From NCBI RefSeq assembly GCF_019039105.1, contig NZ_JAHPIV010000018.1, forward strand, positions 1 to 32,000: DNA of 32,000 nucleotides, written 5' to 3'. The notes beneath the pieces are model-generated. The model was not told where the DNA came from and did no database searches. It saw nothing but the letters and a program-made list of their open reading frames with translations. The stretch's first letter is position 1; each line of letters starts with the position of its first letter. Shown in pieces: positions 1-15,953 of this stretch. The DNA is from Desertibacillus haloalkaliphilus (GTDB lineage: Bacteria; Bacillota; Bacilli; Bacillales; KJ1-10-99). A program made the translations under genes and the position numbers.

Positions 1-605
1 GTTTGATACCTATGACTTAAAGGAACAGACTGCAATTGGTGAGAAACAACTAAACGTATTGAAGGAGTTGAATTGGAGGAATGTTTCACATTAATTATGA
101 TGGGACCGACAGGTGCCGGGAAGACTCATTTATCAGTGGCCCTAGGGATACATGCGGTTGAGAATGGATATAAAGTGTCTTTTATCTCCATGAGTCACCT
201 CATGTACATCTTAAAAACAAAAGAATACATCGGTAAATCTAAAACCAGATATAAAAGAATTATAAATTCAGACTTAATCATCATTGATGATGTTATGTAT
301 ATGACCTATGAGGAACAGGAAGCTCACTTTTTCTTTCAGTTTATTTATGACCTATATGACAAAGCTGCTTTTATCCTAACATCAAATAAAGGACCAGGTG
401 AGTGGGGGAAATTCCTCGGAGACCCCACTCTAACAACAGCCATATTAGATCGTCTCTTGCATCGAAATGAGATTCTCACTTTCGATGAAGAGGCAGATAG
501 TATTCGAATGAAGTATAGAAAAGCATTATTTGATCCGCAAACTGTTGAATCTTAATTGTGGAAAGTTGTTTGAAGTTATTTGTGGAAAATTGTTTAATTC
601 TACTT
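1..605 (+). mobile_element. IS21-family insertion sequence, right-hand portion (helper gene plus terminal repeat region); the rest lies left of the window
   Basis: IstB-type ATPase ORF. Downstream are two copies of TGTGGAAARTTGTTT (557-571, 581-595), as expected for the multi-repeat ends of IS21-family elements. The exact terminus is not determined (~600-610). Confidence 0.65.
2..555 (+). pseudogene. istB: IstB-like IS21 helper ATPase, 5'-truncated by the window and apparently frameshifted
   Basis: Frame 1 from nt 73 gives Walker A GPTGAGKTH, Walker B LIIIDDV and LDRLLHR. The expected upstream residues FDTYDLKEQTAIGEKQLNVLKELNW are in frame 2 (nt 2-76), which stops at 92-94. Frame 1 has stops before nt 73. 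A frame change near nt 74-80 is therefore needed. Confidence 0.6.
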
Positions 606-1068
606 GACGGTTACAATAATATTCCTTTAACTCAGTGGCATTATCTTTCCATTCCACTAGATGTCCGTTGACTATCTGTTGAAGGACATCCAAGCACCGA
701 TGCCACCCTGCAGCGGTATTAACTGCCCATGAATCGTCGTCAAAAGTATGGGTGAAGATCATTCGAGAACCTTTATCCTCTTCCTGCAAAGATATGTTCA
801 CCAGATCACCTTCTTCACGGAAACCAAATAAATATGGCTTTTCAAACTCTGTGATAGTAGCCTTATATGTTGTACCTTCACCATCATCGAAGCCAATTTC
901 ACCACCAAGTCTGAGATCCATCTCCCCTGTGGCAAAAGGGTACCATTGGGAGAAATAATTAGAAGTTGTGAGGACACGGAATACATCTTCTGGATTTTGA
1001 GGGAAAGATCGTTCAAATCTTAAAGCATATCGACCATTTGATTCATGTAATTTACCATATTCATTCAT
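526..1068 (-). CDS. SRPBCC / AHSA1-like (START-fold) domain protein; the C-terminal ~25 aa appear to be read-through into IS sequence
   Basis: The sequence has the general look of Bacillus SRPBCC/AHSA1 family proteins (RFERSFPQNPEDVFRVLT..., WYPFATGEMDLRLGG, GWHRCLDVL). The tail ELNNFPQITSNNFPQLRFNSLRIK is the translation of the IS repeat region. Confidence 0.6.
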   Translation of the reverse strand: MNEYGKLHESNGRYALRFERSFPQNPEDVFRVLTTSNYFSQWYPFATGEMDLRLGGEIGFDDGEGTTYKATITEFEKPYLFGFREEGDLVNISLQEEDKGSRMIFTHTFDDDSWAVNTAAGWHRCLDVLQQIVNGHLVEWKDNATELKEYYCNRQVELNNFPQITSNNFPQLRFNSLRIK

Positions 1069-1597
1069 AATTTCATCCTCCTCTTCTTTATCCTTGAATT
1101 CCTTCTGTAACTTGTTATGATGATCAAATTACAAAAAATGTGTATCTCCATGTCACACAAGAAATGAAAAAAGAAGCCTCTCAAAAGTTCGGTGAACTAA
1201 TGAGAAGCCTCCGTTAATAACCTCAATGTTAGCAAAATGTTAGCATTTCACTCTCACCTTACTAACAAATCCTTATATATCAAGGGTTCGAGGGGCAGAT
1301 GTCCAGCTTCAGTGCCTACGAGCTCGGGGCCACTTCAGGCCTTTTTTGAAGCCAAAAATCGGCTTCTATCAAAGTCCTTCCAGTGCCTGTCGCTCGTGAC
1401 CAAGGCACTTACGCTTTTCTTATTACATCATGCCGCCCATGTCTTGCCCTATTTTACCTACTTATACATACCTATCTAACCTCTAATAAATAAAGGGAAA
1501 TCGTAAATGCATCATTTAAAAACATTACTATGTTATATCAATTTATATGACAGTCGGCACCAAAACGGCACCAAATGCACAACTTAACTCAAAAGTT

Positions 1598-3865
1598 CTA
1601 ACTTCCAGATTTTTCGTTATTTATTACCCTAAACCCATTTTTGAAGTACCTCTCAAGAGAATACAAAAACTTATCATCCGTAATCCAAAGCATATTGAGA
1701 TCCTTGGAACTTTTGATTTTATTTTTCAAATAATTTAATTCTTCTTTTTTCACCCAATGAGGAGTAATGTAATTACCGTCTGGTAAAAAATCAAAATCTA
1801 AGTTACTTTCATCTATATATATTTGTTGCCCTAATAATAATAACTCCATTTTTTTCATACAATATTTTATTGTTCTTTTATTAATATTAAAAGAACTTTC
1901 CCCTTTTGTATAATTATCTTCAAACGAAAACACATCACTTTCAAAAGGGTTAGTTGAACTTAAAAAAGAATGATAATATTCAACCAATTTTTCATTATCA
2001 AAGTTAGTTACAAGAAACTTAACTAAAAAGCCGGTTGATTTATGGTGAGAAATTTCAATTGACTTAAATAAACATTGAAATAAGATTAACATTGAAATAT
2101 TTTCGTATTGTTCTAAACCATGTTCTTTACTCCTCTCTCTTAATACCTTGAACTTATTTTCTAATTGTTCCTTTCTCTTTTCATTTATAGAAAGAAGTAC
2201 TTCTTTAGCCTTACGAGGTATCTTCTTACTACTATTTAATTTTCTTATACTTGTGTTTATATCTTTCATTTGTTTTCGTATTAAATCCTGCTCAGCGCTA
2301 GTCACACCCTTTGTTAATGAATACGACGCGTCAGTTAATATATTCAAGTCATCTTTTGAAATAACTTTTAATATGAGCGTCCTATAGACTAAAAATATAT
2401 GTTTAACTTCAAAGGTAATAATTTCACCATCAAAGCTTTGTTGATTCTCCAATTCTGATACTGAAGTTTCCAAGAATTCAATCAAAAAGGGCACCCCATC
2501 AGTTTGGTTATTACAAATTGAGGTTGCTAACTCCCCAAGTGACTTCAAATAGATTTGGAGCAAATGTTTATACTTATTCTCGAGCTGCTTAACCGTATTC
2601 TCATCAAAGTTAGTTTCCCCTATCACGTTATCTTTTCCTACTCCAATTACCTGTTCATTATATTCGTCGTTAGTTTGTTTGATCTTATCATCAGTCACAG
2701 TGACTATTTCAGAGAGCGGGTTCCTCGGCTTTAACTGATTAAAGTGTTTAATCGCAGTTCGAGCAAAATCCAAATTGTGATTATTTATTAAAAACATAAC
2801 TAATGAAGTATAATTTTTAATAACTAACGAGTACAACTCTTGATATTTATCACGGTCTTCCGATATGATGTAAAACATTATACTATTTTCTTCTTGGTTG
2901 GGATCTCTTGAATTTTCCATTAAGTCTTTAATTAATGTCCTAAAACTATGGAACTGTTCATCATAAATTTTGTACATATTTTTATCTACTGCCATTTTAA
3001 GCATTTGATAAATACTTTCAATTGTATACTCAATATTACTATAATAATTTTCAATCAAATTCCGATTAAAAGTATTAGCATCTTCATTACTCAGATATGA
3101 TATAGTCCTAAACCTTTTTTCCAAATCTAATATTGAATCAAAAAGGATATACCTAATATTTATAGTTCTAAATAACTTTTTTAAAGACTTCATTAATAAA
3201 AATAAAGTTATGATCACTAACGATATCCAAATATCGATCCGACTAATTTCAATGTTTGTTGCTACTAAAGATGCATTCAAATCTTCACTTTGGCTTGTTA
3301 TTACATAATTTAAATGATAACCGTATATGATCGTTAGAAGGTTAAAGTAAATAAAAACTATTAAATAAACATTTTTTGTCAGGTCGTTTATTAATGATTC
3401 AAAAGAGGTCTTTTGTACCCTATAGATAAACAAATAAAGAGTGATACTAGCGGGTAAAATAATTGTCAGCGCTCCAGAAAAACCCATTAATAAGTCCGAT
3501 GTTAATCCATCAGATAGTTCATGAAATCCATATTTTCGATTAAAAAAAATGGTAGATATATTATCAATTCCTAAATTAGGCAATATAAAAAATGCAATTA
3601 TATAAATACATAAGAATATAATTATTGAAGTGAAAAAGTTTGTTAAAATAAATTTATAAAAGCTCACAGTATATAACCTTAAATACGCGACCGTTACTTG
3701 AACCTTTTTATTACCAAAAAACCGCCTATAAAACTTAGTATTAAACATTTGGGATTTTAAATCTAAAATGGTTTGATATTTAATATCTTTTGATAAGTAA
3801 TTAAATATTTCTAATATAAATAAGATTGAGATTAAAATAATAGTGAGAGTTAACAAATTACCCAA
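1598..3865 (-). CDS. 755-aa multi-pass membrane protein with a large uncharacterised soluble C-terminal domain (candidate toxin/effector partner of the upstream Panacea gene)
   Basis: Long ORF. Five hydrophobic segments lie in the first ~230 aa; the remainder is K/E/N-rich with no motif I recognise. SD AAAGGAGGGG lies directly upstream. The TTG at 3865 is only 2-3 nt from the SD, and the in-frame TTG at 3856 has better spacing. Confidence 0.8.
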   Translation of the reverse strand: MGNLLTLTIILISILFILEIFNYLSKDIKYQTILDLKSQMFNTKFYRRFFGNKKVQVTVAYLRLYTVSFYKFILTNFFTSIIIFLCIYIIAFFILPNLGIDNISTIFFNRKYGFHELSDGLTSDLLMGFSGALTIILPASITLYLFIYRVQKTSFESLINDLTKNVYLIVFIYFNLLTIIYGYHLNYVITSQSEDLNASLVATNIEISRIDIWISLVIITLFLLMKSLKKLFRTINIRYILFDSILDLEKRFRTISYLSNEDANTFNRNLIENYYSNIEYTIESIYQMLKMAVDKNMYKIYDEQFHSFRTLIKDLMENSRDPNQEENSIMFYIISEDRDKYQELYSLVIKNYTSLVMFLINNHNLDFARTAIKHFNQLKPRNPLSEIVTVTDDKIKQTNDEYNEQVIGVGKDNVIGETNFDENTVKQLENKYKHLLQIYLKSLGELATSICNNQTDGVPFLIEFLETSVSELENQQSFDGEIITFEVKHIFLVYRTLILKVISKDDLNILTDASYSLTKGVTSAEQDLIRKQMKDINTSIRKLNSSKKIPRKAKEVLLSINEKRKEQLENKFKVLRERSKEHGLEQYENISMLILFQCLFKSIEISHHKSTGFLVKFLVTNFDNEKLVEYYHSFLSSTNPFESDVFSFEDNYTKGESSFNINKRTIKYCMKKMELLLLGQQIYIDESNLDFDFLPDGNYITPHWVKKEELNYLKNKIKSSKDLNMLWITDDKFLYSLERYFKNGFRVINNEKSGS

Positions 3866-3888
3866 CCCCTCCTTTCTTATATAGTAAC

Positions 3889-3921
3889 AAAAAAAAACGG
3901 AGTGGGTCTCCGTTTTTTTTA
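3889..3921 (-). terminator. Intrinsic (bidirectional-looking) terminator between the Panacea gene and the 755-aa gene
   Basis: A-run 3889-3897, stem ACGGAG (3897-3902), loop TGGGT, stem CTCCGT (3908-3913), T-run 3913-3920. On the minus strand the hairpin is followed by a run of 9 U. It overlaps the stop codon of ORF 3919-4401. Confidence 0.7.
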
Positions 3922-4401
3922 CATATAATTTATGTTTATTTCGTCCTTGTAAAAATCAAACATATTTTCTATAGATATAATACTCCTGCTTCTGGATTGG
4001 GGGCTTTTATTACCACGAGCATTCTTCCATGGATCTTCATTGTGGGTTCTCATTTCAAGAGTCTTCCCAGACTCATGCCCGTATTTATTCCACACGAAGT
4101 CTAGAACAAATGTAGCAAATTCGTCTTCATCCAATTCCGTCTTTCCAACATAGGTAGGGATGTCATCATATCCATAATTAGAATACTTTTGCCATAACTT
4201 TCGACAAACCGGACCGTGAACCCAAGCCTCAAACTCACAATCATTAATTAACCTTTCGTGTGTTCCCCCACTAATCGCTAAATAGTAAGCCTCTCCATAA
4301 AATGTTAATTTTTGCAATTTGAGTGGATCGATTGCCCATATTGTCCCTGGTGAGCTTTTCCGCAAGAAATATTTCGCTACTTCTTCAACAGAATATACCA
4401 T
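3919..4401 (-). CDS. Panacea / DUF4065 domain protein (GepA/SocA-like, PanA-type putative antitoxin)
   Basis: Motifs LKLQKLTFYGEAYYLA and EFEAWVHGPVCRKLWQKY are characteristic of DUF4065 as I recall it. SD AAGGGGG lies ~9 nt upstream of the ATG. Confidence 0.7.
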   Translation of the reverse strand: MVYSVEEVAKYFLRKSSPGTIWAIDPLKLQKLTFYGEAYYLAISGGTHERLINDCEFEAWVHGPVCRKLWQKYSNYGYDDIPTYVGKTELDEDEFATFVLDFVWNKYGHESGKTLEMRTHNEDPWKNARGNKSPQSRSRSIISIENMFDFYKDEININYM

Positions 4402-4443
4402 TTAATCGACCCCCTTTTTTAATATGCTGAAATGAAATTGAAC

Positions 4444-4472
4444 ATTATACTACAACTTATCCACAATGTAAA
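4444..4472 (-). promoter_or_regulatory. Sigma-A type promoter for the Panacea gene
   Basis: The minus strand reads TTTACA (4472-4467), a 17-nt spacer, then TATAAT (4449-4444), ~40 nt upstream of the ATG at 4401. Confidence 0.6.
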
Positions 4473-4802
4473 CTAATCTTCATACTTTTATGATACTACA
4501 TTTAAAACAATAAGTCACCTGCACCTGTGAAACTTTTAAGTTATTATTTCTATCCATTACGAGACAAATACTATATATTGTGTAATCAAAAAAGGGAAAC
4601 ACTAAATATTACTACCTTCATAATATTGTTACATCTATATTAAATTTTAAATTAATGCAACCTTGACAAAAATAAATCATGCCCATTTCTTAAATGCCAA
4701 AAAACAACCAGAGTTTTTATAATTAACATTCCAGAAATTCTATGCCCTCCAATCACTGAAGAGGCGTGTTAAAAACACTTTAAAATGCTTTTTCAAAAAT
4801 GT

Positions 4803-7442
4803 TTATAGGGCGTTTTGCAAATCCTCCCACTTACGTCCAAACATCCTGGCATGGCGTTTTGTCAAAAATGAATTATCATACTTTATTTCGGCTGGTGGTT
4901 TCATGTGGCAAATAAACGCATTTTGCATTTCCTTTCCAGCTCGGACAGATACAATTGCATAATGCATTGGCAATCGAGAAGCATCTTCAATCGTAATCGT
5001 TGGCTCTAGCCGGTGTTTTGATAGTTCAAACGTTTTTGTGTGATCATTAGCAAATAAGAATTGTTGGACACCGCCACCCTGTAAATTCTCTTGTAAGCTC
5101 TGGGGTAACTTGTTCCAATGGTGAAAAGCATATAACGAACCAAGACGCTCTTTTCTCCCTTCTGTACCAATACGCCCCATTAGTTTTGTTAATCCTTCTG
5201 TTGTGTATTGCTCAGGCTCATTAAATACCACGAAGCAGCCATTCTTTTGATCAGCTTTACTCATGAGCATACGTGTCATGAATGTTTTTAGCGTCACCCA
5301 ATGGACCAGCGTTTTAGTCGCTAACTCACCTAGCTTACGGTTAGGTATACGAATAATAATAACCTTACCTTCCTTCATCCACTTCTCAAAGTCCACATCT
5401 TTCTTTGGTGGTTGAGCAAATATGTCAAAAAGAGTATCGTTATCAAAAAAGTCACCTAATCGATTAAGTACAGGATCAGCTTTACTCCCCAATTCTTCAT
5501 TCGTCCCCCATTGTATTAATTCGTTCGCTAATCTTATATTCCCTTCGTTCATTAACTGCTCGATGCGTTCTAATCTATAGGATTCATCTTCAATAATTCG
5601 TTTAATGTTATACAGGGACCCTCCCGCTGACTTGGCAGCCGTTTTTAGGTAGCGTTTAGAACGTGATAAACCTTCCATATCCCCAAAAAAGTCAATTACC
5701 TCATCTGCAAATCTCGAAGCGCCCTTTCTCCCTAACTTTTCAATAACCTCCGTTAGGTCCAACGGCACAATATATTCCTCATCACTTAAATCGATATCAA
5801 TGATCTTATCAGGTGGCAAAGTATCCCTTATACCGTCGGCCATTCCTCTTTCTCCTTCTTCAACAATTGCTTCTGGAATAACTGCACTAATTCCATGATT
5901 TAAACAGCCATCAATTATCCAATTTTTTATAGCGGTGTCTTTACCAGCACCTTGACCACCAATGAACACATAACCTCTATAGAAGGTGTCAGGGTTCGTC
6001 ACAGGCATTGATATTGGTATCTTAGTATCCTTATACTCCGCTAACCCTAATGGAATCCCCTTTCCAGTTCTCATGGCCTTTGGTATGTCAACTTCTGTTT
6101 TGGTTTTAGTGCTCAACGCATCATCATAACGCCTTTGGAGTTCTTGGGATGGCATTTGTAACGCTAACCGGTTCATCTCATCAGTACTTATTAAATTGAC
6201 GTCAGCATCCATTTTAGACCGTTTGGATAGTCTCAATTCATTAATTTCTCTAATCGCATCAATTCGTTTTCCATTCACCTTCACTTTTATTCCATGCAGC
6301 TCATTGTTTTCTGCCAGCTCACTCATTGAAAGTGACAAGGTTTCACCCAGAGTTTCTCTTGTTAATTTATCGTTAGAATGAGCAGATACTCTGATTTTTG
6401 ATTTAAAAACAGGTTGGTTGATCTTTTCGCGACTGGCATTACTCAAGCGAGCTGCACTTATTTCATCTTCAAGGGAGTACCCTTTTTCGACCACCTTTTC
6501 TTTCTTAAAGCCTTTATCGGATTTAAAGAACACATTAGAAAACGCCTGGAATGTATCGGTTAAAAGATCATTGATTTCATTAATAACACCTGCCACACCG
6601 GTTTTAACCGCTTTTGTCACCTTTCCACTGCTTAAATTTGCACGTTGTGGAACTTTTCCTTTTTGTAACTTCTCCATCGCCCACTGAGCACTTTTTACCC
6701 ACTTTTGACGATTTTCAGCTTCATTGCATATAGATAATCTAGCCATGTCACCATCGTATTGCAATTCATCAACTGTATTTAATATAGAAGAAATCGGTGT
6801 TTTTGTTTCCGTGGCGTTAGTATTCATGGAAAAAATGTCATGTTTGAGGTATTTCATATCTTGAACAACTGTGTTTGCTTGTGGGATCTGTAGATCATCA
6901 ATCGAAGCATCTTTTATTGTGGCGTTCATTTTATTCTCAAGCTTTCGTTTTAGTTTTAGTGCTTGATATTCAGACGTAGCGACATAAAATTCAATTTTCT
7001 TTTCACCTTTTACTTGCTTAAAAACAACATCAAACCAAAAGTAATCTTTTTCTCTATACCTAAACTTGAACCCATCACGTTCCAGCCTTGATCTCGGGCA
7101 TTCATACATTTCATACATTTTATAAATGGACCGCCATAACCTTTTATTATTGTTTGTTATTTTTGAATGTGGGATGATTCTATATACCACCATTTTGTTT
7201 CGCTCCACTTCAAAGAAATCATCCCATTTAACAGCCTTTGTTTTCGTGAGTAGACGCTTGAACTTACTGCTCAATTTTTCATTTTCGGGTATAACATCAA
7301 TCACTAGTGCAGGTTTGCCACATCTGCTTTTATCAGGATAGTGGTAAACCGTTTCTTTTGTATCTAGGATTTCAATTTCCGTTTTCTCTCTAACGACAGG
7401 AAGGTTTTTATCATCTAACATAATGAAGTTAGGCTCCTTCAT
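4803..7442 (-). CDS. ~879-aa P-loop NTPase of the FtsK/HerA/VirB4-VirD4 (ASCE) type, with a ~490-aa unassigned N-terminal domain
   Basis: Walker A-like GGQGAGKDT (nt ~5934-5960). Walker B-like CFVVFNEPEQY (nt ~5205-5237), followed by GRKERLGSLYAFHHWNKL, which resembles the post-Walker-B motifs of T4SS ATPases. The likely start is the ATG at 7442, overlapping the M23 stop (ATGA), with GGAGG 7 nt upstream. The track start at 7490 is probably an over-extension. Confidence 0.55.
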   Translation of the reverse strand: MKEPNFIMLDDKNLPVVREKTEIEILDTKETVYHYPDKSRCGKPALVIDVIPENEKLSSKFKRLLTKTKAVKWDDFFEVERNKMVVYRIIPHSKITNNNKRLWRSIYKMYEMYECPRSRLERDGFKFRYREKDYFWFDVVFKQVKGEKKIEFYVATSEYQALKLKRKLENKMNATIKDASIDDLQIPQANTVVQDMKYLKHDIFSMNTNATETKTPISSILNTVDELQYDGDMARLSICNEAENRQKWVKSAQWAMEKLQKGKVPQRANLSSGKVTKAVKTGVAGVINEINDLLTDTFQAFSNVFFKSDKGFKKEKVVEKGYSLEDEISAARLSNASREKINQPVFKSKIRVSAHSNDKLTRETLGETLSLSMSELAENNELHGIKVKVNGKRIDAIREINELRLSKRSKMDADVNLISTDEMNRLALQMPSQELQRRYDDALSTKTKTEVDIPKAMRTGKGIPLGLAEYKDTKIPISMPVTNPDTFYRGYVFIGGQGAGKDTAIKNWIIDGCLNHGISAVIPEAIVEEGERGMADGIRDTLPPDKIIDIDLSDEEYIVPLDLTEVIEKLGRKGASRFADEVIDFFGDMEGLSRSKRYLKTAAKSAGGSLYNIKRIIEDESYRLERIEQLMNEGNIRLANELIQWGTNEELGSKADPVLNRLGDFFDNDTLFDIFAQPPKKDVDFEKWMKEGKVIIIRIPNRKLGELATKTLVHWVTLKTFMTRMLMSKADQKNGCFVVFNEPEQYTTEGLTKLMGRIGTEGRKERLGSLYAFHHWNKLPQSLQENLQGGGVQQFLFANDHTKTFELSKHRLEPTITIEDASRLPMHYAIVSVRAGKEMQNAFICHMKPPAEIKYDNSFLTKRHARMFGRKWEDLQNAL

Positions 7443-8125
7443 TTCATCCCTCCTAGAATGCAGATAGCCAAAATCAACGCACCAAACCACCAGGCAAGAG
7501 TTTTAATCATCCCACCTTTACCTACCATCGATGAGAAGATCATAAGGACACCAGCTGCAATTGTCCCATAACCCATAATGTCAGGTAAATTAGCAACAAA
7601 CCACATCCATATATCTGTTGTGACTTCCTGTATAAAGTTAGCGAACGGCTTTAACACAAGCTCAGTTTCTTTTCCGATGACCCAATCTGAGAACTGATTA
7701 AATTTCTCCAAAAAGAAGTTTGTGTTTGAATTTTCGATATGACCGCTAATAGCACTAATACCGTCCGCAAAAGGTGTAGGATCAACATATTCGCCATCTG
7801 GTGACTTCAATGCAAAATGCAAATGTGGTCCAGTGCTATTACCTGTATTACCGCTAAAACCGATAGTGTCCATAAAGTTAACAGATTGCCCTTCTTTGAC
7901 TGTGATCTCACTCAAATGACCGTATATGGCTTGCGTTCCGTCCTCCAATCGAATGTAAACACCGTTACCAATTTTCTCCCCATCCTCAATCACACGCTCA
8001 ATAACACCATCACCAACACTTCTTAATTCCGTACCTGTTTCCATCCCTAAATCAATTCCGCTATGTGGCCTGTTGTCTCGTACTTCTGATAATTCACCGA
8101 ACGGGCTCGTTAGTTTAAATTTCAT
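7439..8125 (-). CDS. M23 (LytM-type) metallopeptidase with two C-terminal transmembrane helices
   Basis: HSGIDL (HxxxD) and GPHLHFAL (HxH) motifs with the intervening GNGVYI...YGHL beta-core. The C-terminus has hydrophobic stretches IAAGVLMIFSSMV and LAWWFGALILAICILGG. No N-terminal signal peptide is seen. Confidence 0.8.
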   Translation of the reverse strand: MKFKLTSPFGELSEVRDNRPHSGIDLGMETGTELRSVGDGVIERVIEDGEKIGNGVYIRLEDGTQAIYGHLSEITVKEGQSVNFMDTIGFSGNTGNSTGPHLHFALKSPDGEYVDPTPFADGISAISGHIENSNTNFFLEKFNQFSDWVIGKETELVLKPFANFIQEVTTDIWMWFVANLPDIMGYGTIAAGVLMIFSSMVGKGGMIKTLAWWFGALILAICILGGMK

Positions 8126-8133
8126 ACGATCAC

Positions 8134-8478
8134 CTATATTGTTTTTAGAAAATCTCTAATGTCTATTGCATGACGGGCAATGATATATCCACAAGAAACA
8201 CCTATAAGGATTTCTAGCCCTTTGGTACGATGCCCCAACCCCCAAGCACAACCAGCAAACATAATGACTAAAACTACACCAGCATCAATCATATTCATGG
8301 CTGATCCGTGAACATTTCCAAATGTCCCGTCTACTCCTGCAGCTAATGCCAATTTAGGCACTAACAAAACTGCACCTGCCATTGATGCTGACAATACTTT
8401 AATTTCAGTATTGTTTTTCTTTTCTCTCCAATCGCGACTCATAAAATCTCTAAAGTTGATCGCTTCCGTTTTAGCCAT
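8134..8478 (-). CDS. 114-aa membrane protein (signal-like segment plus two hydrophobic helices; VirB2/VirB3-like topology)
   Basis: Segments VLSASMAGAVLLVPKLALAAG, then AGVVLVIMFAGCAWGLG and ILIGVSCGYIIA. SD AGGAGGGG lies upstream. The stop is 8 nt from the M23 start. Confidence 0.6.
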   Translation of the reverse strand: MAKTEAINFRDFMSRDWREKKNNTEIKVLSASMAGAVLLVPKLALAAGVDGTFGNVHGSAMNMIDAGVVLVIMFAGCAWGLGHRTKGLEILIGVSCGYIIARHAIDIRDFLKTI

Positions 8479-8540
8479 TGTACCCCTCCTGAATAATTTG
8501 TTTTAAAGCGGTCATAATAACCAGCAAAGGAGGTCATCAA

Positions 8541-8609
8541 ATGGTATTTACGACCGCTTTAGTTGTTGGCTTTGCTGTCGGAACAGGCGTTAATATTTTG
8601 ATTGGTTAA
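8541..8609 (+). CDS. 22-aa hydrophobic peptide MVFTTALVVGFAVGTGVNILIG (candidate type I toxin-like or small membrane peptide)
   Basis: Not in the ORF track (too short). A perfect SD AAAGGAGG (8526-8533) lies 7 nt before the ATG. A strong plus-strand terminator follows immediately. The ORF is antisense to the 3' end of ORF 8590-8901. Confidence 0.45.
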   Translation: MVFTTALVVGFAVGTGVNILIG

Positions 8610-8901
8610 TAAACACTTTCGGAGCTGATTGCTGGCTCCGTTTTTTTAGTTGCTCGAGCCGATCTGATGGAGATTGTTTAGGTTGCGGTGTCATAACAGA
8701 TTTATCATTTTGAATATCATCTTTTTCGCCTTCATTTTTCGTTTTGTCACTCTTATTACCTTGCTTTTGTTTTATATCCTCCAAGATCAACTTTTTTACA
8801 TATCCACTAAAATTACGCCTGCTGATGTTCTTCAAAATGAGTTGATCTTCTTCATTTGTCTTATTAAATGATACAGACTTCACGAATCTGTTTTTGCTCA
8901 T
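8590..8901 (-). CDS. 103-aa protein: RHH-like N-terminal DNA-binding segment plus a K/Q/E/D-rich low-complexity tail
   Basis: KSVSFNKTNEEDQLILKNISRRNFSGYVKKLILEDIK has a beta-strand/helix/helix pattern. It is paralogous to the 47-aa ORF at 9289-9432. Confidence 0.5.
   Translation of the reverse strand: MSKNRFVKSVSFNKTNEEDQLILKNISRRNFSGYVKKLILEDIKQKQGNKSDKTKNEGEKDDIQNDKSVMTPQPKQSPSDRLEQLKKRSQQSAPKVFINQSKY
8620..8647 (+). terminator. Rho-independent terminator (plus strand only)
   Basis: CGGAGC (8620-8625), 9-nt loop, GCTCCG (8635-8640), then T7 (8641-8647). The minus-strand version lacks a U-run. Confidence 0.7.
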
Positions 8902-9021
8902 AAGATCACCCTTTTCCTGTACGACATGTATGAGCGAAAAATAATTTTATTGGTACTAGCAAGTTTCGGCTAATGTGTGCATAAGTTATTACACATAACG
9001 TGTAGTAACTTTTCGAGGCTT

Positions 9022-9432: not shown

Positions 9433-9506
9433 TGTAGTCACCTCGTTACTTGTTATTTAGTTTCAATGTATGGGTGGATAGCTTGTTTTGATAACAATTT
9501 TTATGT

Positions 9507-9530
9507 ATTTTATCCAAAATTTTACCCAAA
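9507..9530. repeat. Tandem 12-nt direct repeat ATTTTAYCCAAA x2 (candidate operator)
   Basis: ATTTTATCCAAA (9507-9518) is immediately followed by ATTTTACCCAAA (9519-9530). The repeat lies in the divergent intergenic region, at the -35 position relative to the TGgTAAGAT element at 9545-9553. Confidence 0.6.
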
Positions 9531-9544
9531 ATAATCTATAGTTG

Positions 9545-9553
9545 TGGTAAGAT
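9545..9553 (+). promoter_or_regulatory. Extended -10 element (TGgTAAGAT) upstream of the XRE gene
   Basis: TG-n-TAAGAT lies ~40 nt upstream of the ATG at 9592. No good -35 was found. Confidence 0.35.
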
Positions 9554-9591
9554 GAATGTACAGGCATAATTAAAGGAGGTGATACATATAA

Positions 9592-9846
9592 ATGCAGGTT
9601 GGAGTGAAAAGGACGATGAAGATTAAAGTTAGAAGTAAGTTAGGTGAATTACTCGATGAAAGAATGGTGAATAAATCTGAATTAGCTAGATCTATCAACG
9701 CTACACCAAAACAACTTTATGCCTGGTGTTCAAATAAAGAGGACGGACAGGCTAAATCAACACCTTCGGTTGGATACCTCCTACGCTTAAAAAAAGTTTT
9801 AGGTGTTGATATCGAGGATATGTTTGAGGAAATAAATGAAAAGTGA
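9592..9846 (+). CDS. XRE-family helix-turn-helix transcriptional regulator (84 aa)
   Basis: LGELLDERMVNKSELARSINATPKQLYAW is a typical HTH_XRE segment. SD AAAGGAGGTGA lies upstream. Confidence 0.75.
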   Translation: MQVGVKRTMKIKVRSKLGELLDERMVNKSELARSINATPKQLYAWCSNKEDGQAKSTPSVGYLLRLKKVLGVDIEDMFEEINEK

Positions 9847-9880
9847 ATCAGCTAGATTTATAAAGCGAAGGAGTGATTCT

Positions 9881-9976
9881 TTGGATAAACCGCTAAATGG
9901 TGGGTTTATATGCGGCAGGCATGGAGTTGGTTATAAAACAAAATGTCCAACCTGTAAATTCGAAGAAGAGTATTAG
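9881..9976 (+). CDS. 31-aa Cys-rich (zinc-ribbon-like) peptide MDKPLNGGFICGRHGVGYKTKCPTCKFEEEY (not in the ORF track)
   Basis: TTG start preceded by AAGGAGTGA. Its initiation region is nearly identical to that of the next gene. Confidence 0.4.
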   Translation: MDKPLNGGFICGRHGVGYKTKCPTCKFEEEY

Positions 9977-9991
9977 GAAGAGGTGATCCAT

Positions 9992-10219
9992 TTGGATAAA
10001 AATAAAATTGTTGAAAAATACAATGCTTATTGCCAGTGTTTCCAAAGCGAAAGAACTGTAGAAGAAGCACCAGAGAAAGCTATGGATTGTGTTGAGTTTA
10101 TTCCAGAATTATTGGGGAAGGTCGAACGGTATGAAAATGTGTTGGAGCGTATCTCGATAACTAATACAGATAAAGCTATGTATCGCACTTGGGCAGAAAA
10201 CGCACTTAATAAAAAATGA
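9992..10219 (+). CDS. ~75-aa hypothetical protein
   Basis: Track ORF 9983-10219. The TTG at 9992 (MDKNK...) after GAGGTGA is the better start. Confidence 0.5.
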   Translation: MDKNKIVEKYNAYCQCFQSERTVEEAPEKAMDCVEFIPELLGKVERYENVLERISITNTDKAMYRTWAENALNKK

Positions 10220-10296
10220 TTTTATTTCGCAGTACGATCAAAAACGGAATAAATACGCGTCTGATTTAGGAAAATAAGAAAATTGGTGTTGTATAG

Positions 10297-10524
10297 GTGG
10301 GATGGATGATGAGAGAACTATTTTACAAAGCAGGTGATATTATCACTTGCCCTACTTGCAATGAAGAATCTATACAGTTTGTTCAAAATGGTTACAAGAA
10401 TGACCGTTTAACTCATGACATGGTTATAAATCATCAGTCAAAAACACCATTTACGGAATTTGATGATTGTAAATGTGAGCATTGCGAAAGTAAAGATATT
10501 TGGTACGTCATTATGCGTGGGTAG
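10297..10524 (+). CDS. Small Cys4 zinc-ribbon protein (CPTC...CKCEHC)
   Basis: ORF with two CxxC-type pairs. The start is probably one of the ATGs at 10306 or 10309, after AGGTGGGA. Confidence 0.5.
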   Translation: MGWMMRELFYKAGDIITCPTCNEESIQFVQNGYKNDRLTHDMVINHQSKTPFTEFDDCKCEHCESKDIWYVIMRG

Positions 10525-10534
10525 GAGTGGTCAT

Positions 10535-10867
10535 ATGAAATACGATAAGGATAGTGTACAGGTATTTTTAGATGGAGTGAATGTGAATTTTGACGGTTGC
10601 GAAGAAATAAAACCCGATCTGACTAATAGTGAAAAGGTTAAAGAGCTCATACACGAAAGTATAGAACGCTCATTTAATGCGAGTAATCAAATGGACTTCA
10701 AACAATCGATCGAACAGCAATTCAAAAGTTGGTTTGGTGACGACGTATTAGATCATATTGATGTAGCGATTTTACAAATAAGAGATAACAAGGTGGAATA
10801 TGAGTTAGTAAGTAAGACTCATCGTGGTGCAAAAATTGTGGATGAAGTATGTTATATTGCAGAATAA
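10535..10867 (+). CDS. 110-aa hypothetical protein
   Basis: In-frame ATG at 10535 preceded by TAGGAGTGG. The track start at 10460 overlaps the previous gene and lacks an SD. Confidence 0.5.
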   Translation: MKYDKDSVQVFLDGVNVNFDGCEEIKPDLTNSEKVKELIHESIERSFNASNQMDFKQSIEQQFKSWFGDDVLDHIDVAILQIRDNKVEYELVSKTHRGAKIVDEVCYIAE

Positions 10868-10892
10868 CCCCTCCAATACGAGGGGGGATTTT
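10868..10892 (+). terminator. Plus-strand hairpin terminator
   Basis: CCCCTC (10868-10873), loop CAATAC, GAGGGG (10880-10885), then GGATTTT. Confidence 0.55.
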
Positions 10893-10898
10893 GTACTG

Positions 10899-10925
10899 AA
10901 AAAAGACAGTCTAATACAGACTGCC
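10899..10925 (-). terminator. Minus-strand hairpin terminator downstream of the LexA-DBD gene
   Basis: The minus strand reads CAGTC-TGTATTA-GACTG followed by TCTTTTTT. Confidence 0.45.
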
Positions 10926-11050
10926 TCTTACTAAAATAGAAAGGTTCCCTTCAACCTACATTTAATATACCGTGCACAACAAATAAAGAAACGTATCCGA
11001 AATCACTCTATCCAGAATAAAGTATGTTTAATTACAATACCGATAAACAA

Positions 11051-11275
11051 TCATTGGTTTTCGTTATGACAAATTCTTAATGTGCGCGGCTTACTCTCCT
11101 CCCAATCAATTATCCCTTCCTTTTTCAACCTTTCCAAATGGCCATGGACAGTGCTCGATGATTTTAAACCTGTTAATTCGCATATCTCACGAGTTGTTGG
11201 AGGGTATTTTTTTGTGGTGATAAATAATTTGATTACATCTAAAATTTCATTTTGACGTTTAGTGATTTTCCCCAT
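11051..11275 (-). CDS. Stand-alone LexA-type winged-helix DNA-binding domain protein (no S24 peptidase domain)
   Basis: MGKITKRQNEILDVIKLFITTKKYPPTTREICELTGLKSSSTVHGHLERLKKEGII matches the LexA N-terminal domain pattern (TxRQ..., PPTxREI..., SxSTVxxHLxxLxxKG). The protein ends ~74 aa in. The ATG at 11275 has an SD-like GGGGGAAG, and the track start at 11320 is likely too far upstream. Confidence 0.7.
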   Translation of the reverse strand: MGKITKRQNEILDVIKLFITTKKYPPTTREICELTGLKSSSTVHGHLERLKKEGIIDWEESKPRTLRICHNENQ

Positions 11276-11313
11276 AAGCTTCCCCCATATTTCTTCTTTT
11301 TTACAATTATAAA

Positions 11314-11357
11314 CGAACATATATTCTGTTTCAAGTTGAAAAGGGAATGAATGTTCT
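11314..11357. promoter_or_regulatory. Two degenerate Cheo/SOS-box-like dyads (CGAACATATATTCT and GGAATGAATGTTCT)
   Basis: Compared with the Bacillus LexA box CGAAC-N4-GTTCG: box 1 (11314-11327) has a perfect CGAAC half-site, and box 2 (11344-11357) has GTTC plus GAAT. Both lie in the divergent intergenic region. Box 2 sits in the spacer of the plus-strand promoter. Confidence 0.45.
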
Positions 11358-11365
11358 GGTAATAT
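11336..11365 (+). promoter_or_regulatory. Sigma-A type promoter (TTGAAA, 18-nt spacer, TGg-TAATAT)
   Basis: TTGAAA at 11336-11341 and an extended -10 TGGTAATAT at 11357-11365, ~35 nt upstream of the ATG at 11400. Confidence 0.55.
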
Positions 11366-11399
11366 TGAAGTTAATCAATTAAAAAAAGAGGTGTTTTTC

Positions 11400-11621
11400 A
11401 TGAAAGGTTCAGAACATGAATGTTTGCCTGAATTAACTAAAAAAGATATGCGTGACATCCAAAGAAAATTTGATACTGAGAAAAAACGTCTTGAGGAGGA
11501 TAAGGATTTCTACACAGAAGATGTTGAAACACAAAAGTTATTCCTTGCCTCTTTTTATGACTCTTTATGCTTAGCAAAACGACTCAGTAAGAAAAAGTTT
11601 ACTCCGAATAAAAAAGTATAA
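11400..11621 (+). CDS. 73-aa hypothetical, charged helical protein
   Basis: ATG at 11400 after AAGAGGTG. The track start at 11391 lacks an SD. Confidence 0.5.
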   Translation: MKGSEHECLPELTKKDMRDIQRKFDTEKKRLEEDKDFYTEDVETQKLFLASFYDSLCLAKRLSKKKFTPNKKV

Positions 11622-11647
11622 AAATCGGGAATGACAGGAGTGATAAC

Positions 11648-11965
11648 ATGACTACGCAACTTGGGATGTGCGATAAATGCAATCGTACAGGAAGAGCCAG
11701 GAACTTAACGTTGTTTTATAACCAGTTCCTTTGCCCAGACTGTTATAGCAAGGAAGATACTGGAACATCAAGATATGAGTTTATGCTTTTTCAGTGGGTC
11801 CAAGGGCATCGAGTGTTTAAGATTATGGATTTTAAAGAAGGACGCATTCTCTTTGTTAAAGAAAGTGAATACTTGAGCGGCGAGTTAGGTAAGGAAATAT
11901 CAGAGGCAATAGATAGAGTGTATGAGGAGCGGATATTAAGCGGATCTCATGAATATAATGGTTAA
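11648..11965 (+). CDS. 105-aa protein with an N-terminal Cys4 zinc ribbon (CDKC...CPDC)
   Basis: ORF with SD GACAGGAGTGA, followed by a terminator. Confidence 0.55.
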   Translation: MTTQLGMCDKCNRTGRARNLTLFYNQFLCPDCYSKEDTGTSRYEFMLFQWVQGHRVFKIMDFKEGRILFVKESEYLSGELGKEISEAIDRVYEERILSGSHEYNG

Positions 11966-11989: not shown

Positions 11990-12667
11990 TTACCGTAAAC
12001 GTTGCAGCACAACGCTGTTCAACCAAATCATTTCTGATGCTGTTATTGTGCGGTCTTTGATTTTTCGTAGCCAATCTTGGTCGCTGATCACGCCGTCTTC
12101 CAGTAATCCTTCGACCTGATTTTCTAACACACTCCATTGGTAGTTGGATAAATTCAAATCGTCATCCCCCTTCATAAGCTCTTTTCTTACATCCATTCTG
12201 AATTTATCCATTGAAAACAACTTACCAGGGCAGGATGTGCTTTGACCTGGTATTTCATAATGACCGAATACATCTTTATGAGTTAAATTGTGTTCACGGC
12301 ATTTAGCAGCTGTAATGGAAACTAATTTTCTGTATTGATCGTCACTAATTCGCTTTGCGGGGACGCCATTAACATCTTGGTGAAAATTCCCCTCAGCACA
12401 AATGCCGATATACCTGTGATTTTCACCCTTTGTGTGTGCACCTACATATTCGGTTCCTTTAGCACTTCGTCCATAGTAAACTGTCGCATCCTGCTGAACA
12501 TAGTAGCTGTAAGCAGTACCGTTCCAGCCGATGCTTATGAAATATTCATGTAGTCGTTGTATAGTCCAATACGCTAACGGATGGTGAATTACAATGCCCT
12601 CAACCGACTTCATCTTTTGTCTTCGGTTAGGGAATTTTAAATTAGCATCTTTAATCATGATCATCAT
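11990..12667 (-). CDS. Endolysin: N-acetylmuramoyl-L-alanine amidase (Amidase_2/PGRP fold) with a short helical C-terminal domain
   Basis: GIVIHH..., YSYYVQQDATVYYGR, GAHTKGENHRYIGICAEGNF and H...CPG are typical Zn-amidase motifs. It is the last gene of the lysis cassette. Confidence 0.8.
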   Translation of the reverse strand: MMIMIKDANLKFPNRRQKMKSVEGIVIHHPLAYWTIQRLHEYFISIGWNGTAYSYYVQQDATVYYGRSAKGTEYVGAHTKGENHRYIGICAEGNFHQDVNGVPAKRISDDQYRKLVSITAAKCREHNLTHKDVFGHYEIPGQSTSCPGKLFSMDKFRMDVRKELMKGDDDLNLSNYQWSVLENQVEGLLEDGVISDQDWLRKIKDRTITASEMIWLNSVVLQRLR

Positions 12668-12938
12668 CCTTCTTCTTGTACTGTTTTAACATTTGATGAC
12701 CAAACACACTCACACCAGCCACTATAACGCCTTGTATAACCGCATCTACATTGAATCCTAACAAAGCGATAGAAAACCCTACACCGATGAATAGAACGAT
12801 GTAGGGAATAAGCCAATCTTTTATGTTAGGCGTCTTTTTCAACATTGTGCCTAGTACTAACAGAACAGGTATTAGTATATAAGCTTCTTCGATTATGTGA
12901 TTCACTAACTCGCTAATTTCCAATTCAAACACCTCCAT
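12651..12938 (-). CDS. Holin (XhlB / phage_holin_4-like; three TM helices and a charged C-terminus)
   Basis: Three hydrophobic helices, then KQYKKKDDDHD. It lies between the XhlA-like gene and the amidase, with overlapping gene ends. Confidence 0.75.
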   Translation of the reverse strand: MEVFELEISELVNHIIEEAYILIPVLLVLGTMLKKTPNIKDWLIPYIVLFIGVGFSIALLGFNVDAVIQGVIVAGVSVFGHQMLKQYKKKDDDHD

Positions 12939-13160: not shown

Positions 13161-14114
13161 TTATTTCAACCTCTCTAAAATAACCGCTAATTCAGCTCTC
13201 GTTACTGTTTCATTAGGCTTAAACGTCCCGTCAGGATAACCAGCTAACTTGCCTTTTTTAGCCTGATTTTCGATAGCCGTTTGTGCCCAATGTCCTTCTA
13301 CGTCCGCAAATTTAACTTGGCTCACTTCTCTCACCTCCTCTTTTACAGGGTTTTCTTTCATTTCTGGCACGTCGGGCAAAATAAAAAGGCCATGACCGCT
13401 ACGTGTGTCAAAGCCTTCTTCGTATTTGTCGATGCAATTATCATGAATAAAACGTCTCGCTTGATCTGTATTGAGCTTTTCGCCTAGTGCAGACATGTAA
13501 CATGCCAACATCCCACAAACAGCCGGTGCAGAGGCGCTAGTACCTCCAAATGACATGTAACCGTTCTGTTTGTTATTAGGATTAGGGACATTGATATCGG
13601 TGAACGCTACTGCATCTAACATTTCCCCACGGTTTGAATATCCCGCAACATGTCCCCATCTTTTTTGATAAGCACCAACGGCTATTGTCCAATCAAAGCG
13701 TGCTGGAAATGAGATACGGTCATTATCCTGGTTACCACTACTGCACACAAGTGGTATATTCAAACCACTTAAGTATTCATCGATTAGCTCATATGTTGGC
13801 CTTGTAGCTGTGAAACTGCAATTAACAATATCAACATCGTTATCGACTATCCATTGTGCCATCTCCTCTTTACCTGACCCAAACCAAGGCATAGAGATAA
13901 TGCGAGCTTTCGGTGCAAACTCACGGACAATGCTACATACGTGAGTGTTGTGTCCGATCTCCCCGTTATGATTCTCTTTAAACGGTAATTCAACCTCAGT
14001 CTCTTCAAGAGGACTATGGAGGGTGTCTAACACAGCTACTGTGACACCCTGACCCTTATAGCCTTTTTCGTGAAAAGTAATTATATTTGACTTTTTGAGG
14101 ACTTCTGAATTCAT
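13161..14114 (-). CDS. Subtilisin-like S8 serine peptidase with one C-terminal SLH (S-layer homology) domain
   Basis: Triad contexts VAVLDT (Asp), GHNTHV (His), GGTSASAP (Ser). The C-terminus FADVEGHWAQTAIENQAKKGKLAGYPDGTFKPNETVTRAELAVILERL matches the SLH motif. Confidence 0.8.
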   Translation of the reverse strand: MNSEVLKKSNIITFHEKGYKGQGVTVAVLDTLHSPLEETEVELPFKENHNGEIGHNTHVCSIVREFAPKARIISMPWFGSGKEEMAQWIVDNDVDIVNCSFTATRPTYELIDEYLSGLNIPLVCSSGNQDNDRISFPARFDWTIAVGAYQKRWGHVAGYSNRGEMLDAVAFTDINVPNPNNKQNGYMSFGGTSASAPAVCGMLACYMSALGEKLNTDQARRFIHDNCIDKYEEGFDTRSGHGLFILPDVPEMKENPVKEEVREVSQVKFADVEGHWAQTAIENQAKKGKLAGYPDGTFKPNETVTRAELAVILERLK

Positions 14115-14161
14115 TCTCGCCCCTCCTTTTTAATCATAAAAAACACACCTTTTTGTGAATT

Positions 14162-14189
14162 AAAAAAGAACCTACTTATTGTAAGTTCT
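14162..14189 (-). terminator. Rho-independent terminator after the 196-aa gene
   Basis: The minus strand has a 9-bp stem (AGAACUUAC / GUAGGUUCU, one G-U pair), loop AAUAA, then U6. Confidence 0.7.
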
Positions 14190-14193
14190 AATA

Positions 14194-14784
14194 TTAATTA
14201 TCCTGGTTATTAAATAAACTCGTGCATTCTTCCACAAGTGATTTTAACCATAAAAAATACTCTTCGCATTTGTCAATTACATTACTATCCTTAAATTCTT
14301 CTACTGTATCGTAGATATTTAGGATACCATGGATCGTTAGCTCTTTCTCATTTCTTACTATTTGATTTTCAATATTGTCTACTTCCTTAATTTCCAAATT
14401 ATACTTTTTATCTTTCCCGTTTTTCTCTAAAAATATCTTCATTTCACTATAAACATCAACTGTTTCAGAATCCGAATGAATTATAGAATATTTTTTTGTT
14501 TTTAGAGGGGCTTGCTTTAGTGATCTATTTCTCATATTTGTAATCCCTCTTAATAAAATATCTTCAGATTCACTGGTTGATTTGTTCTCGTACCAATTTC
14601 TCCAATTATTATTTGAATCATATTCAGAATTCATTATCCATAAGACAGCTCTTGCTGAACTGACAAATGCATTCAGGAAATAATCAAACTCCGGGAAAAT
14701 ATTTTTGTGTTCTTTTAATTTATTTAGAAAAAAATCAGCCTCATTTAGCTTATCAATTGTATAGTTCAATCTCATCACCCCCAC
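14194..14784 (-). CDS. 196-aa uncharacterised helical protein (Abi/HEPN-like N-terminal pattern is only a weak impression)
   Basis: AT-rich ORF with its own terminator, divergent from the Abi-alpha gene. The N-terminal FFLNKL...FDYFLNAFVSSARAVLWIM resembles helix patterns seen in several Abi/HEPN-type families, but no Rx4-6H motif was found. The start is uncertain (GTG 14784, ATG 14775 or TTG 14769). Confidence 0.6.
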   Translation of the reverse strand: MGVMRLNYTIDKLNEADFFLNKLKEHKNIFPEFDYFLNAFVSSARAVLWIMNSEYDSNNNWRNWYENKSTSESEDILLRGITNMRNRSLKQAPLKTKKYSIIHSDSETVDVYSEMKIFLEKNGKDKKYNLEIKEVDNIENQIVRNEKELTIHGILNIYDTVEEFKDSNVIDKCEEYFLWLKSLVEECTSLFNNQDN

Positions 14785-14922
14785 TACATGATACCATAGT
14801 AGGGATGAAGGGAATGAAAAATAACACTAGCTAATGCTGCGTCCAATGAACCAAAAATTAAAAGGTTTATTACACAATTTATCGAAAGTTAGAACACATA
14901 ATAACTTATTGAGGTGAACAAA

Positions 14923-15716
14923 ATGTCCGATGGAAATTTTTTTACTGACTTATCCAAATCAATAAAGGTCCCAGCTGATATTACCAAGTCTGCACTTGAA
15001 CCGCCAGCTAAACAAATCGGCGAAGGACTTGGCGACTTATTCTTTATTGCGTTTTCTCCTTTAGCAAAAGCTAGAATTAAAAAAGAGCTTGATATTCAGA
15101 AATTCAAAGAGGAAATTGAGAAAGAATTATCTCTTATTCAACCCGATAAAGTCTCTGAGCCCTCTTTAAATATTGTTGGTCCAGCTTTAGAAGCTTCAAA
15201 GTATTATATTGAAGATGAAGAGATTCGCTCTATGTTTGCGAAGTTGATAGCATCATCGGTTAATAGTGACAAGAAAGATAAGTCACATTCTTCCTTTGTA
15301 GAAATAATAAAACAGCTTTCACCTTTCGATGCAAAAAACTTTAAGTATTTGTTTTTAAATACTCATTTGCATATTGCTGTTGGAAAAATAAAAACCAAAA
15401 ATAAAAATGGAGGAGAAAATACCATTATTGAAAATTTTTCCCCTTTCCTGAATTACACATCAAGAACCAAGATCTTTACTCTTCTTCAATTGACAACCTA
15501 ATCCGCTTAGGACTAATAACAATAGATCATGAACTGCATTATACAATGGAAAGCCGTTACGATGCACTTCTTAATCATCCAGTTTATTTAGCCTATAAAA
15601 ATGCTTATGATAATCAAAATACACAAGATGGAGATAAAACAAAAGAATTGTTCTTGAAGAAATCCATCTGGGACTTTACTAGTTTTGGTAAATTATTCGG
15701 TCAATGTTGTTTATAA
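14923..15716 (+). pseudogene. Abi-alpha (DUF4393)-like abortive-infection family gene split into two frames (frameshifted or recoded)
   Basis: Frame 1 (to 15501) gives PPAKQIGEGLGDLF..., EEIRSMFAKLIASSV..., SSFVEIIKQLSPFDAKNFKYLF. Frame 3 (15432-15716) continues with SSIDNLIRLGLITIDHE...FGKLFGQCCL. The likely start is the ATG at 14923 after GAGGTG. Confidence 0.6.
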
Positions 15717-15901: not shown

Positions 15902-15953
15902 ACTATCTCTCCTCGAAATGTATTTTACTACGCATTATGAACCTGAGTTGCCA

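Follow-up and report, generated by a model that had tools for sequence, protein, structure and literature searches.

The window analysed here is a stretch of 32,000 nucleotides (nt) from Desertibacillus haloalkaliphilus (contig NZ_JAHPIV010000018.1, positions 1 to 32,000) which contains a prophage. At the prophage edge lie two open reading frames (ORFs) on the minus strand, and these are the subject of this report: panA, which encodes a stand-alone Panacea/DUF4065 protein of 160 amino acids (aa), and directly downstream a gene encoding a 755-aa membrane protein, referred to below as the large gene and the large protein (Table 1). Both proved to be real, as stated in a preliminary description of this DNA. 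They are separated by 53 nt, within the 100 nt limit of Kurata et al. 2022; in the other loci described below the spacer is mostly 20 to 60 nt long, with extremes of -4 and 185 nt. The promoter and Shine-Dalgarno (SD) sequence previously proposed for the small gene were both recovered, the promoter being the top-scoring site within positions 1300 to 4900, and panA is predicted to be transcribed from a strong promoter of its own. The SD of the large gene ends 2 nt from the TTG at 3865 and 11 nt from a second TTG at 3856. Because of the latter spacing, and because the start methionine of the Peribacillus homologue aligns at 3856, this second codon may be the true start.

Table 1. Features of the panA/large-gene module, listed in the direction of transcription.
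Feature	Position	Strand	Basis
Putative sigma-A-type promoter of the module, TTTACA-17-TATAAT	4444..4472	-	Consensus scan, 11/12 positions
panA SD, AAAGGGGG (GGGGG at 4414-4410)	4410..4417	-	G-rich; 8 nt ahead of ATG 4401
panA, putative antitoxin, 160-aa stand-alone Panacea/DUF4065 protein, ATG start	3919..4401	-	ORF listing; PF13274 match
Spacer hairpin, terminator-like	3889..3920	-	Read from sequence; custom hairpin/T-run scan
Large-gene SD, AAAGGAGG	3868..3875	-	Read from sequence
Large gene, 755 aa (752 aa if start 3856), putative PanA-controlled membrane effector	1598..3865	-	ORF listing, TTG start
Large protein, N-terminal membrane domain, aa 1-225, five predicted transmembrane helices	3191..3865	-	Hydropathy and positive-inside rule
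Large protein, predicted cytoplasmic all-helical solenoid-like part, aa 226-755	1601..3190	-	AlphaFold2 secondary structure
Large protein, most conserved block of the family, aa 585-740	1646..2113	-	50-member alignment and conservation profile

The small protein had been described as a member of the DUF4065/Panacea family, and this was borne out by a match to PF13274 (SocA_Panacea) over aa 29-126 with an E value of 7e-12 and 46.7 bits, above the gathering cutoff of 25.7. It also matches phrog_1281 (E 6.5e-38). Against the NCBIfam SocA_antitoxin equivalog NF047745 it scores 46.1 bits, far under the cutoff of 190. The PanA proteins encoded upstream of the large gene in 18 other loci form one clade with 29-46% identity to the window PanA, and the motifs LKLQKL, AWxHGP and LTHxExPW are invariant or almost so across these partner proteins.

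Sequence comparison places the large protein in a genuine family that has no name yet. A word-indexed search of 5.8 billion proteins returned two proteins only, the identical hypothetical protein of D. haloalkaliphilus and a 731-aa protein of Peribacillus frigoritolerans with 32% identity. When the same kind of search was run with a 50-member alignment the query alone was returned, probably as low-complexity words swamped the candidates. An exhaustive profile search of 1.84 billion cluster representatives gave 158 matches at E<=1e-3, 123 at <=1e-10 and 53 at <=1e-30. Most of the representatives are 550-800 aa long, and all of the named hosts are Bacillales. Fifty full-length members share 21-33% identity with the window protein; they have no Pfam, PADLOC or PHROGs family in common, and the large protein itself has zero matches in Pfam, NCBIfam, PADLOC and PHROGs. 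A sequence profile search of the PDB also returned nothing.

Five N-terminal hydrophobic helices had been noted previously in the large protein, and they can be placed by hydropathy at aa 3-21, 77-95, 129-147, 162-180 and 207-225. From the positions of Lys and Arg residues, the positive-inside rule predicts an N-terminus outside the cell and a cytoplasmic location for the last 530 residues. This build is typical of the family: at least three hydrophobic segments are present in the N-terminal part of 112 of the 115 representatives of at least 550 aa, and in these 115 the last segment ends at a median residue of 226. Conservation peaks in the third transmembrane helix (TM3) and at residues 276-300, 351-375, 601-625 and 651-725, with F146, Q287, E604, Y668 and K672 invariant in the 50-member alignment. 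TM3 is the best-conserved part of the membrane domain and its end carries LPxSLTFYxFxYREQK. The block at aa 585-740, which is also the top-scoring stretch in most distant matches, contains the motifs LKSIELSHYxxTGFLxKFLVTNF (aa 598-622) and YCxxKLxILLYGQQKY (aa 668-683); a further conserved motif is IESxYQxL...KNM.

An AlphaFold2 model built from the family alignment reached a pLDDT (predicted local distance difference test) of 80.2 and a pTM (predicted template modelling score) of 0.77, and is all-helical except for one small hairpin. Foldseek searches of the PDB and BFVD with this model returned generic repeats only (designed, HEAT/ARM and TPR) with TM-scores <=0.2. As these hits were all to generic helical repeats, the cytoplasmic part is modelled as a solenoid-like helical array without an informative relative. 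No nucleotide-binding, nuclease or protease signature was found in the large protein, in keeping with the earlier view of its C-terminal region as helical and lacking a known enzymatic signature; with the Pfam, NCBIfam and PDB sequence searches empty and the structural matches generic, no homology to a housekeeping transporter emerged either. A reading of the membrane domain as a CPBP/Abi intramembrane protease was rejected, the hallmarks of that family, EExxxR, FxxxH and HxxxN, being absent together with any Pfam match.

Large-family genes were examined for what lies upstream of them, and a closely related panA gene was found directly upstream on the same strand in 26 independent loci from at least six genera, spanning Desertibacillus, Peribacillus, the Bacillus cereus group, Paenibacillus, Brevibacillus and metagenomic or viral contigs. 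This arrangement was seen in the Peribacillus locus, in 7/7 B. cereus-group plasmids matched by tblastn, in four loci from Paenibacillus vulneris, two Brevibacillus and B. sanguinis, in eight of nine distant representatives sampled down the match list (E 1e-5 to 1e-89) and in six IMG/VR viral contigs. A genome pattern scan with an 8-member alignment gave five loci. PanA precedes every relative found by tblastn or by pattern scan for which upstream sequence is available. Since the flanking genes vary from locus to locus, the conserved unit consists of the two genes.

Besides these 26 loci there is one with a degenerate Panacea-like gene, one without PanA and one uninformative fragment. The degenerate case is the ninth distant representative (L018/L019), where a 129-aa gene (3127-3516) runs into the 5' end of the gene for a 795-aa member of the family. 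Its product escapes detection as Panacea and lacks the AWxHGP core, yet retains the C-terminal LDAVWDTYG...L.E.T; this protein, possibly a reduced or degenerate Panacea, may still act as partner of the large protein. The locus without PanA is on the IMG/VR contig L028 (region 2302-6611), the sole such case found in the family, and its large gene has no panA in the 4.8 kb upstream. This gene lies behind XkdW, an M15 endolysin and a holin, from which a terminator separates it, and it runs into the contig end; the pair may be arranged in the opposite order in this contig, or else the large protein can occur on its own. The co-occurrence on which the preliminary description had made its proposal depend is therefore found in 26 loci with PanA and one with a degenerate form, against one exception. 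Pairwise distances of the PanA and large proteins correlate with r=0.70, a value reached in 0/5000 Mantel permutations. The two proteins are thus linked in a near-obligate manner and have diverged together.

The association was also followed in the reverse direction, using the 80 viral loci with the PanA most similar to that of the window, 55 of which had enough downstream sequence. The large family lies downstream in 5/80. All other downstream partners in the 55 loci are <=298 aa, with a median of 173 aa, which agrees with the earlier remark that the partner in the window is much larger than usual for PanA. PanA relatives in Paenibacillus larvae phages (~40% identity) are partnered with other, smaller genes. 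Such relatives with different partners represent the partner swapping that is expected of Panacea (PMC8832971).

The preliminary description had treated the two genes as simply adjacent; they are in fact separated by a terminator-like hairpin, AAAAAAAACGGAG-ACCCA-CTCCGTTTTTTTTT, in which a CGGAG/CTCCG stem and A-U pairs enclose the loop ACCCA and are followed by a run of nine T. The hairpin was found by a custom scan and was missed by a standard terminator scan. In the minimum free energy fold of the spacer, CCCACUCC and the U-run are instead paired with the large-gene SD (-20 kcal/mol, z -3.0). A hairpin with a T-run occupies the same spacer in 18/26 loci (15/21 plus 3/5 viral) with sequences that are unrelated between loci, the background being 10/35 (29%) for other co-directional junctions of the same loci and 6% for random 75-nt windows (binomial P ~6e-5). 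The spacer of L002 holds a longer hairpin that was overlooked by the scan, and in L008-L010 the SD lies within the 3' arm of the hairpin. An Rfam match to STnc40 over the window hairpin, obtained in a search of positions 1-9000 (27 bits vs 45), was rejected as sub-threshold.

Past the hairpin there is only the SD and the start codon, which leaves no room for a promoter. The large gene would therefore be read by transcripts that cross the hairpin, or that start inside panA and include it, and with a hairpin between the genes simple co-transcription at equal levels is unlikely. The arrangement suggests that the hairpin holds the amount of large protein well below that of PanA.

The base composition of the two genes differs. 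The G+C content is 0.27 in the large gene, 0.37 in panA and 0.38 in the flanks, so that the AT-richness formerly ascribed to the whole module holds for the large gene and not for panA, which resembles its flanks. The large gene has 0.24-0.32 G+C in every locus, always under its own panA (0.30-0.41) and its flanks, and it is still low in Brevibacillus, where the flanks reach 0.45-0.50. K, N, I, F and Y are abundant in the proteins of the family. As low G+C content of the large gene recurs in every host, it is a trait of the family and not a mark of recent transfer.

The preliminary description had named defence islands as a setting to look for around homologues of the large protein, and several of the loci do lie in such islands. 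Their neighbours are Shedu, a retron-type HNH with an AAA ATPase, and DUF262 in one locus; DUF4365 and an AAA ATPase in another; a TIR protein, DUF1643 and TerB-N in a third; and, in one locus each, an HNH endonuclease, an MmeI-like restriction-modification gene, and a methylase with DUF4928. Type II restriction-modification genes are among the neighbours as well. Several loci have serine or tyrosine recombinases or integrases at element edges, and two are lone insertions amid housekeeping genes with no visible mobile element. A DUF1643 gene stands immediately 5' of panA in two unrelated loci, L006 (3307-3969, a B. cereus plasmid) and L015 (3547-4131, a metagenomic contig), and may at times act as a third component or be a preferred neighbour. 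In L022 (3059-8414) the pair lies with two integrase-like genes between fragments of a thymidylate synthase gene, beside DHFR, which suggests an element inserted into thyA.

The closest known systems are the membrane PanATs of E. coli STEC O31, Bartonella apis/choladocola and Helicobacter sp. (PMC8832971, PMC10440598), which likewise combine a Panacea gene with a transmembrane partner within 100 nt, and which share with the pair described here a two-gene unit that is conserved across species and often prophage-borne. The antitoxin-first order of the window is the commoner one in the Kurata set (PMC8832971). Panacea proteins directly neutralise membrane-depolarising toxins (PMC8832971), and the stand-alone Panacea binds its toxin directly and is a possible sensor (PMC10440598). 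Validated membrane PanTs are, however, small peptides, whereas the partner here is 550-800 aa, with five transmembrane helices and a 530-aa helical cytoplasmic part, and unlike the membrane PanATs this pair has a terminator-like hairpin between its genes. The available part of the supplements of Kurata et al. (PMC8832971) holds no accession or species of these pairs, and the family may be among the 88 PanT clusters predicted there.

A phage-borne pair of interest is gp51/gp52 of Streptococcus phage P9, a PanA with a 269-aa membrane PanT that is toxic in E. coli and was not neutralised (PMC8832971, Table S1). This pair is also PanA-first and lies right after the endolysin/lysis cassette at the genome end of a temperate phage, a position like that in the window and in L028. 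The P9 and window PanA proteins share no more than 28% identity over 76 residues, and the 50-member profile is unrelated to gp52, the sole described PanT with which it was compared (hhalign probability 0.9%).

Among more distant systems, SocAB of Caulobacter (type VI) shares the antitoxin domain with PanA, PF13274 being named after SocA. The pair differs from it in the low PanA score against the SocA equivalog and in a large protein that is not SocB-like, and on sequence grounds it is not SocAB. SocA is a ClpXP adaptor. A further likeness is to two-part abortive-infection systems with a membrane effector, such as lambda RexAB and RosmerTA. In both of these prophage-borne systems, the latter with the membrane-depolarising RmrT (PMC10440598), the logic is the same as that proposed here, namely that a cytoplasmic partner controls a membrane-collapsing protein. 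No relation of sequence or fold and no PADLOC match to either was found, so the likeness would be one of functional analogy only.

Taken together, the sequence comparisons point to a probable new module of toxin-antitoxin or phage-defence type. With moderate confidence, we read it as a PanAT-type module carried as prophage cargo, with a new and unusually large membrane effector whose expression is throttled. By all of the computational measures used for PanATs by Kurata et al. 2022 the pair falls among them. In the mechanism that we infer, PanA would bind the cytoplasmic part of the large protein and keep it inactive. The spacer hairpin and T-run would allow just some of the transcripts to extend into the large gene, so that PanA is always in excess, and in some loci the hairpin might also mask the ribosome-binding site of the large gene. 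Loss or inactivation of PanA, for instance upon host shut-off, on infection by a phage or when the element is lost, would then allow the membrane domain to damage the membrane, and the resulting growth stop would abort the infection or kill element-free cells. The steps of binding, inactivation and release leading to membrane damage are proposed by analogy with published Panacea work (PMC8832971, PMC10440598). The PanA-controlled abortive-infection or toxin-antitoxin module of the preliminary description is thus partly supported. The computational checks (Panacea match, linkage, defence settings and lack of transporter homology) came out on its side, and two details needed changing, the composition of panA and the hairpin that separates the genes. 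The cytoplasmic part, suggested there to be a sensor or regulatory domain, is at most a candidate for that role, its model being a generic alpha-solenoid.

Several observations weigh against a PanAT-type module with a toxic effector. The large protein is far beyond any validated PanT in size, no toxic or pore-forming motif can be recognised in it, and the only structural matches are the generic repeats described above. Neither window protein matches PADLOC-DB v2.0.0, and the pair therefore corresponds to no known defence system. One family member, that of L028, stands without PanA. The hairpin and T-run could be a divider of two transcription units and not an attenuator. Furthermore, 8/25 of the PanT candidates tested by Kurata et al. 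were non-toxic in E. coli (PMC8832971).

Three other explanations were weighed. Chance adjacency of the genes, or a spurious 755-aa ORF in AT-rich DNA, might be suspected from the AT-rich, low-complexity sequence and from a word-indexed search that found two proteins only, but it is refuted by the 158 representative clusters (53 at E<=1e-30), the pLDDT of 80, the motifs conserved at 21-33% identity and the pairing repeated in 26 loci of at least six genera, and is left with a negligible likelihood. That the large protein is non-toxic, acting in superinfection exclusion, envelope sensing or a lysis-related role with PanA as an accessory or regulatory partner or a SocA-like protease adaptor, is an unlikely alternative. 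It would account for the size of the protein, its lack of a toxin motif and the position of the L028 gene directly after holin and endolysin with no PanA upstream, and would suit a hairpin that splits two transcription units. Near-obligate linkage and co-divergence with a protein of an antitoxin family are nevertheless hard to explain if the partner is harmless, the space after the hairpin has room for an SD but not for a promoter, and 46 bits against a SocA equivalog cutoff of 190 does not suggest a SocA equivalent.

The same architecture could also serve as an addiction module, stabilising a prophage, megaplasmid or integrative element by post-segregational killing and not by phage defence, which we likewise hold to be rather improbable. 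The occurrence of the module on large B. cereus-group plasmids, beside integrases or recombinases at element edges and at the prophage end fits this explanation, as does an excess of antitoxin set by an intergenic terminator, which is the pattern of classical type II toxin-antitoxin systems; on the other hand, several loci lie amid defence genes rather than maintenance genes, and two others stand alone between housekeeping genes, where no mobile element can be seen. Of the two roles, which do not exclude each other, defence is favoured by the defence-island neighbours, and the occurrence on plasmids and near integrases is compatible with addiction as well. Starting again from the PanAT-type module, a more far-reaching version of it, possible but doubtful, is an undescribed abortive-infection family found across the Bacillales, in which a membrane-anchored solenoid effector would be restrained by a Panacea infection sensor and an intergenic terminator, with membrane collapse fired by phage-induced loss of PanA or by antitermination read-through.

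The Panacea antitoxin and the logic of the module are known already; the partner family, its size and build and the intergenic terminator are new. Panacea antitoxins pair with many unrelated toxins, and the in silico partner family described here is of a different scale and build. It comprises at least 158 sequence clusters, and its genes travel on prophages, megaplasmids and integrative elements in Bacillus (the B. cereus group included) and its relatives. If the large protein is toxic and controlled by PanA, it would represent a new effector class for toxin-antitoxin and defence biology, a tractable case for what the Panacea domain senses, and an instance in which an intergenic terminator sets the dose of a toxin. 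If it is not toxic, Panacea proteins would also pair with non-toxin membrane proteins. The finding extends a known promiscuous system and does not overturn it.

The prophage in the window is evident from its tape measure (25154-27337), baseplate (21428-22606), holin (12651-12938) and amidase (11990-12667) genes. The module had been placed at the prophage periphery next to an insertion sequence (IS); the prophage genes are present, and the IS is reduced to a fragment of an IS21 IstB gene that covers profile positions 94-235 of 238. The module follows a four-gene block (4803-8901, minus strand) that is conserved in Bacillus phages and encodes a 103-aa protein, a 114-aa membrane protein, an M23 peptidase with a transmembrane tail at its C-terminus and an 895-aa VirB4/TrwK-like P-loop ATPase. 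The last of these, phrog_5156, occurs in 109 phage records, mostly Bacillus, and is 68% identical to a phage 0105phi7-2 protein that carries the annotation of a TrwK/VirB4-like translocase. In 0105phi7-2 the block is followed by partition, replication and immunity genes, and in the window by the module, an AHSA1-family gene and the IS21 fragment. The module therefore marks the end of the phage-derived DNA. The truncated IS21 IstB ORF (73-555) abuts the 3' end of the AHSA1-family gene (526-1068, minus strand), whose last residues, NNFPQITSNNFPQL, are encoded by a 24-nt tandem repeat (543-590) resembling IS21 terminal repeats, so that a host gene seems to run into the IS end. A 37-nt direct repeat flanking the module (1472-1508 and 4571-4607, 73% identical) was taken as chance, the alignment of the flanks giving no extended similarity.

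Other parts of the prophage also carry genes of note. An Abi_alpha gene (PF14337, E 1.7e-35) at 14914-15501 on the plus strand is opposite in strand to the late genes and has a neighbouring ORF at 14194-14784 (minus strand). It lies in a second patch of low G+C (0.30-0.34, 14001-16000) between the tail-fibre region and the lysis cassette, and may be a second abortive-infection candidate of the same prophage. Just upstream of the holin and amidase genes, 13161-14114 (minus strand) encodes a subtilase (Peptidase_S8) with an SLH cell-wall anchor, which is unusual for a lysis cassette; Paenibacillus phage Dash (L027) also has an S8 peptidase close to its panA gene. The region 9500-11965, flanked by the lysis cassette and the translocase block, is on the reversed (plus) strand with positive GC skew, and contains ORFs 10460-10867 and 11648-11965 without a Pfam match. 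This region may be another moron or regulatory insert.

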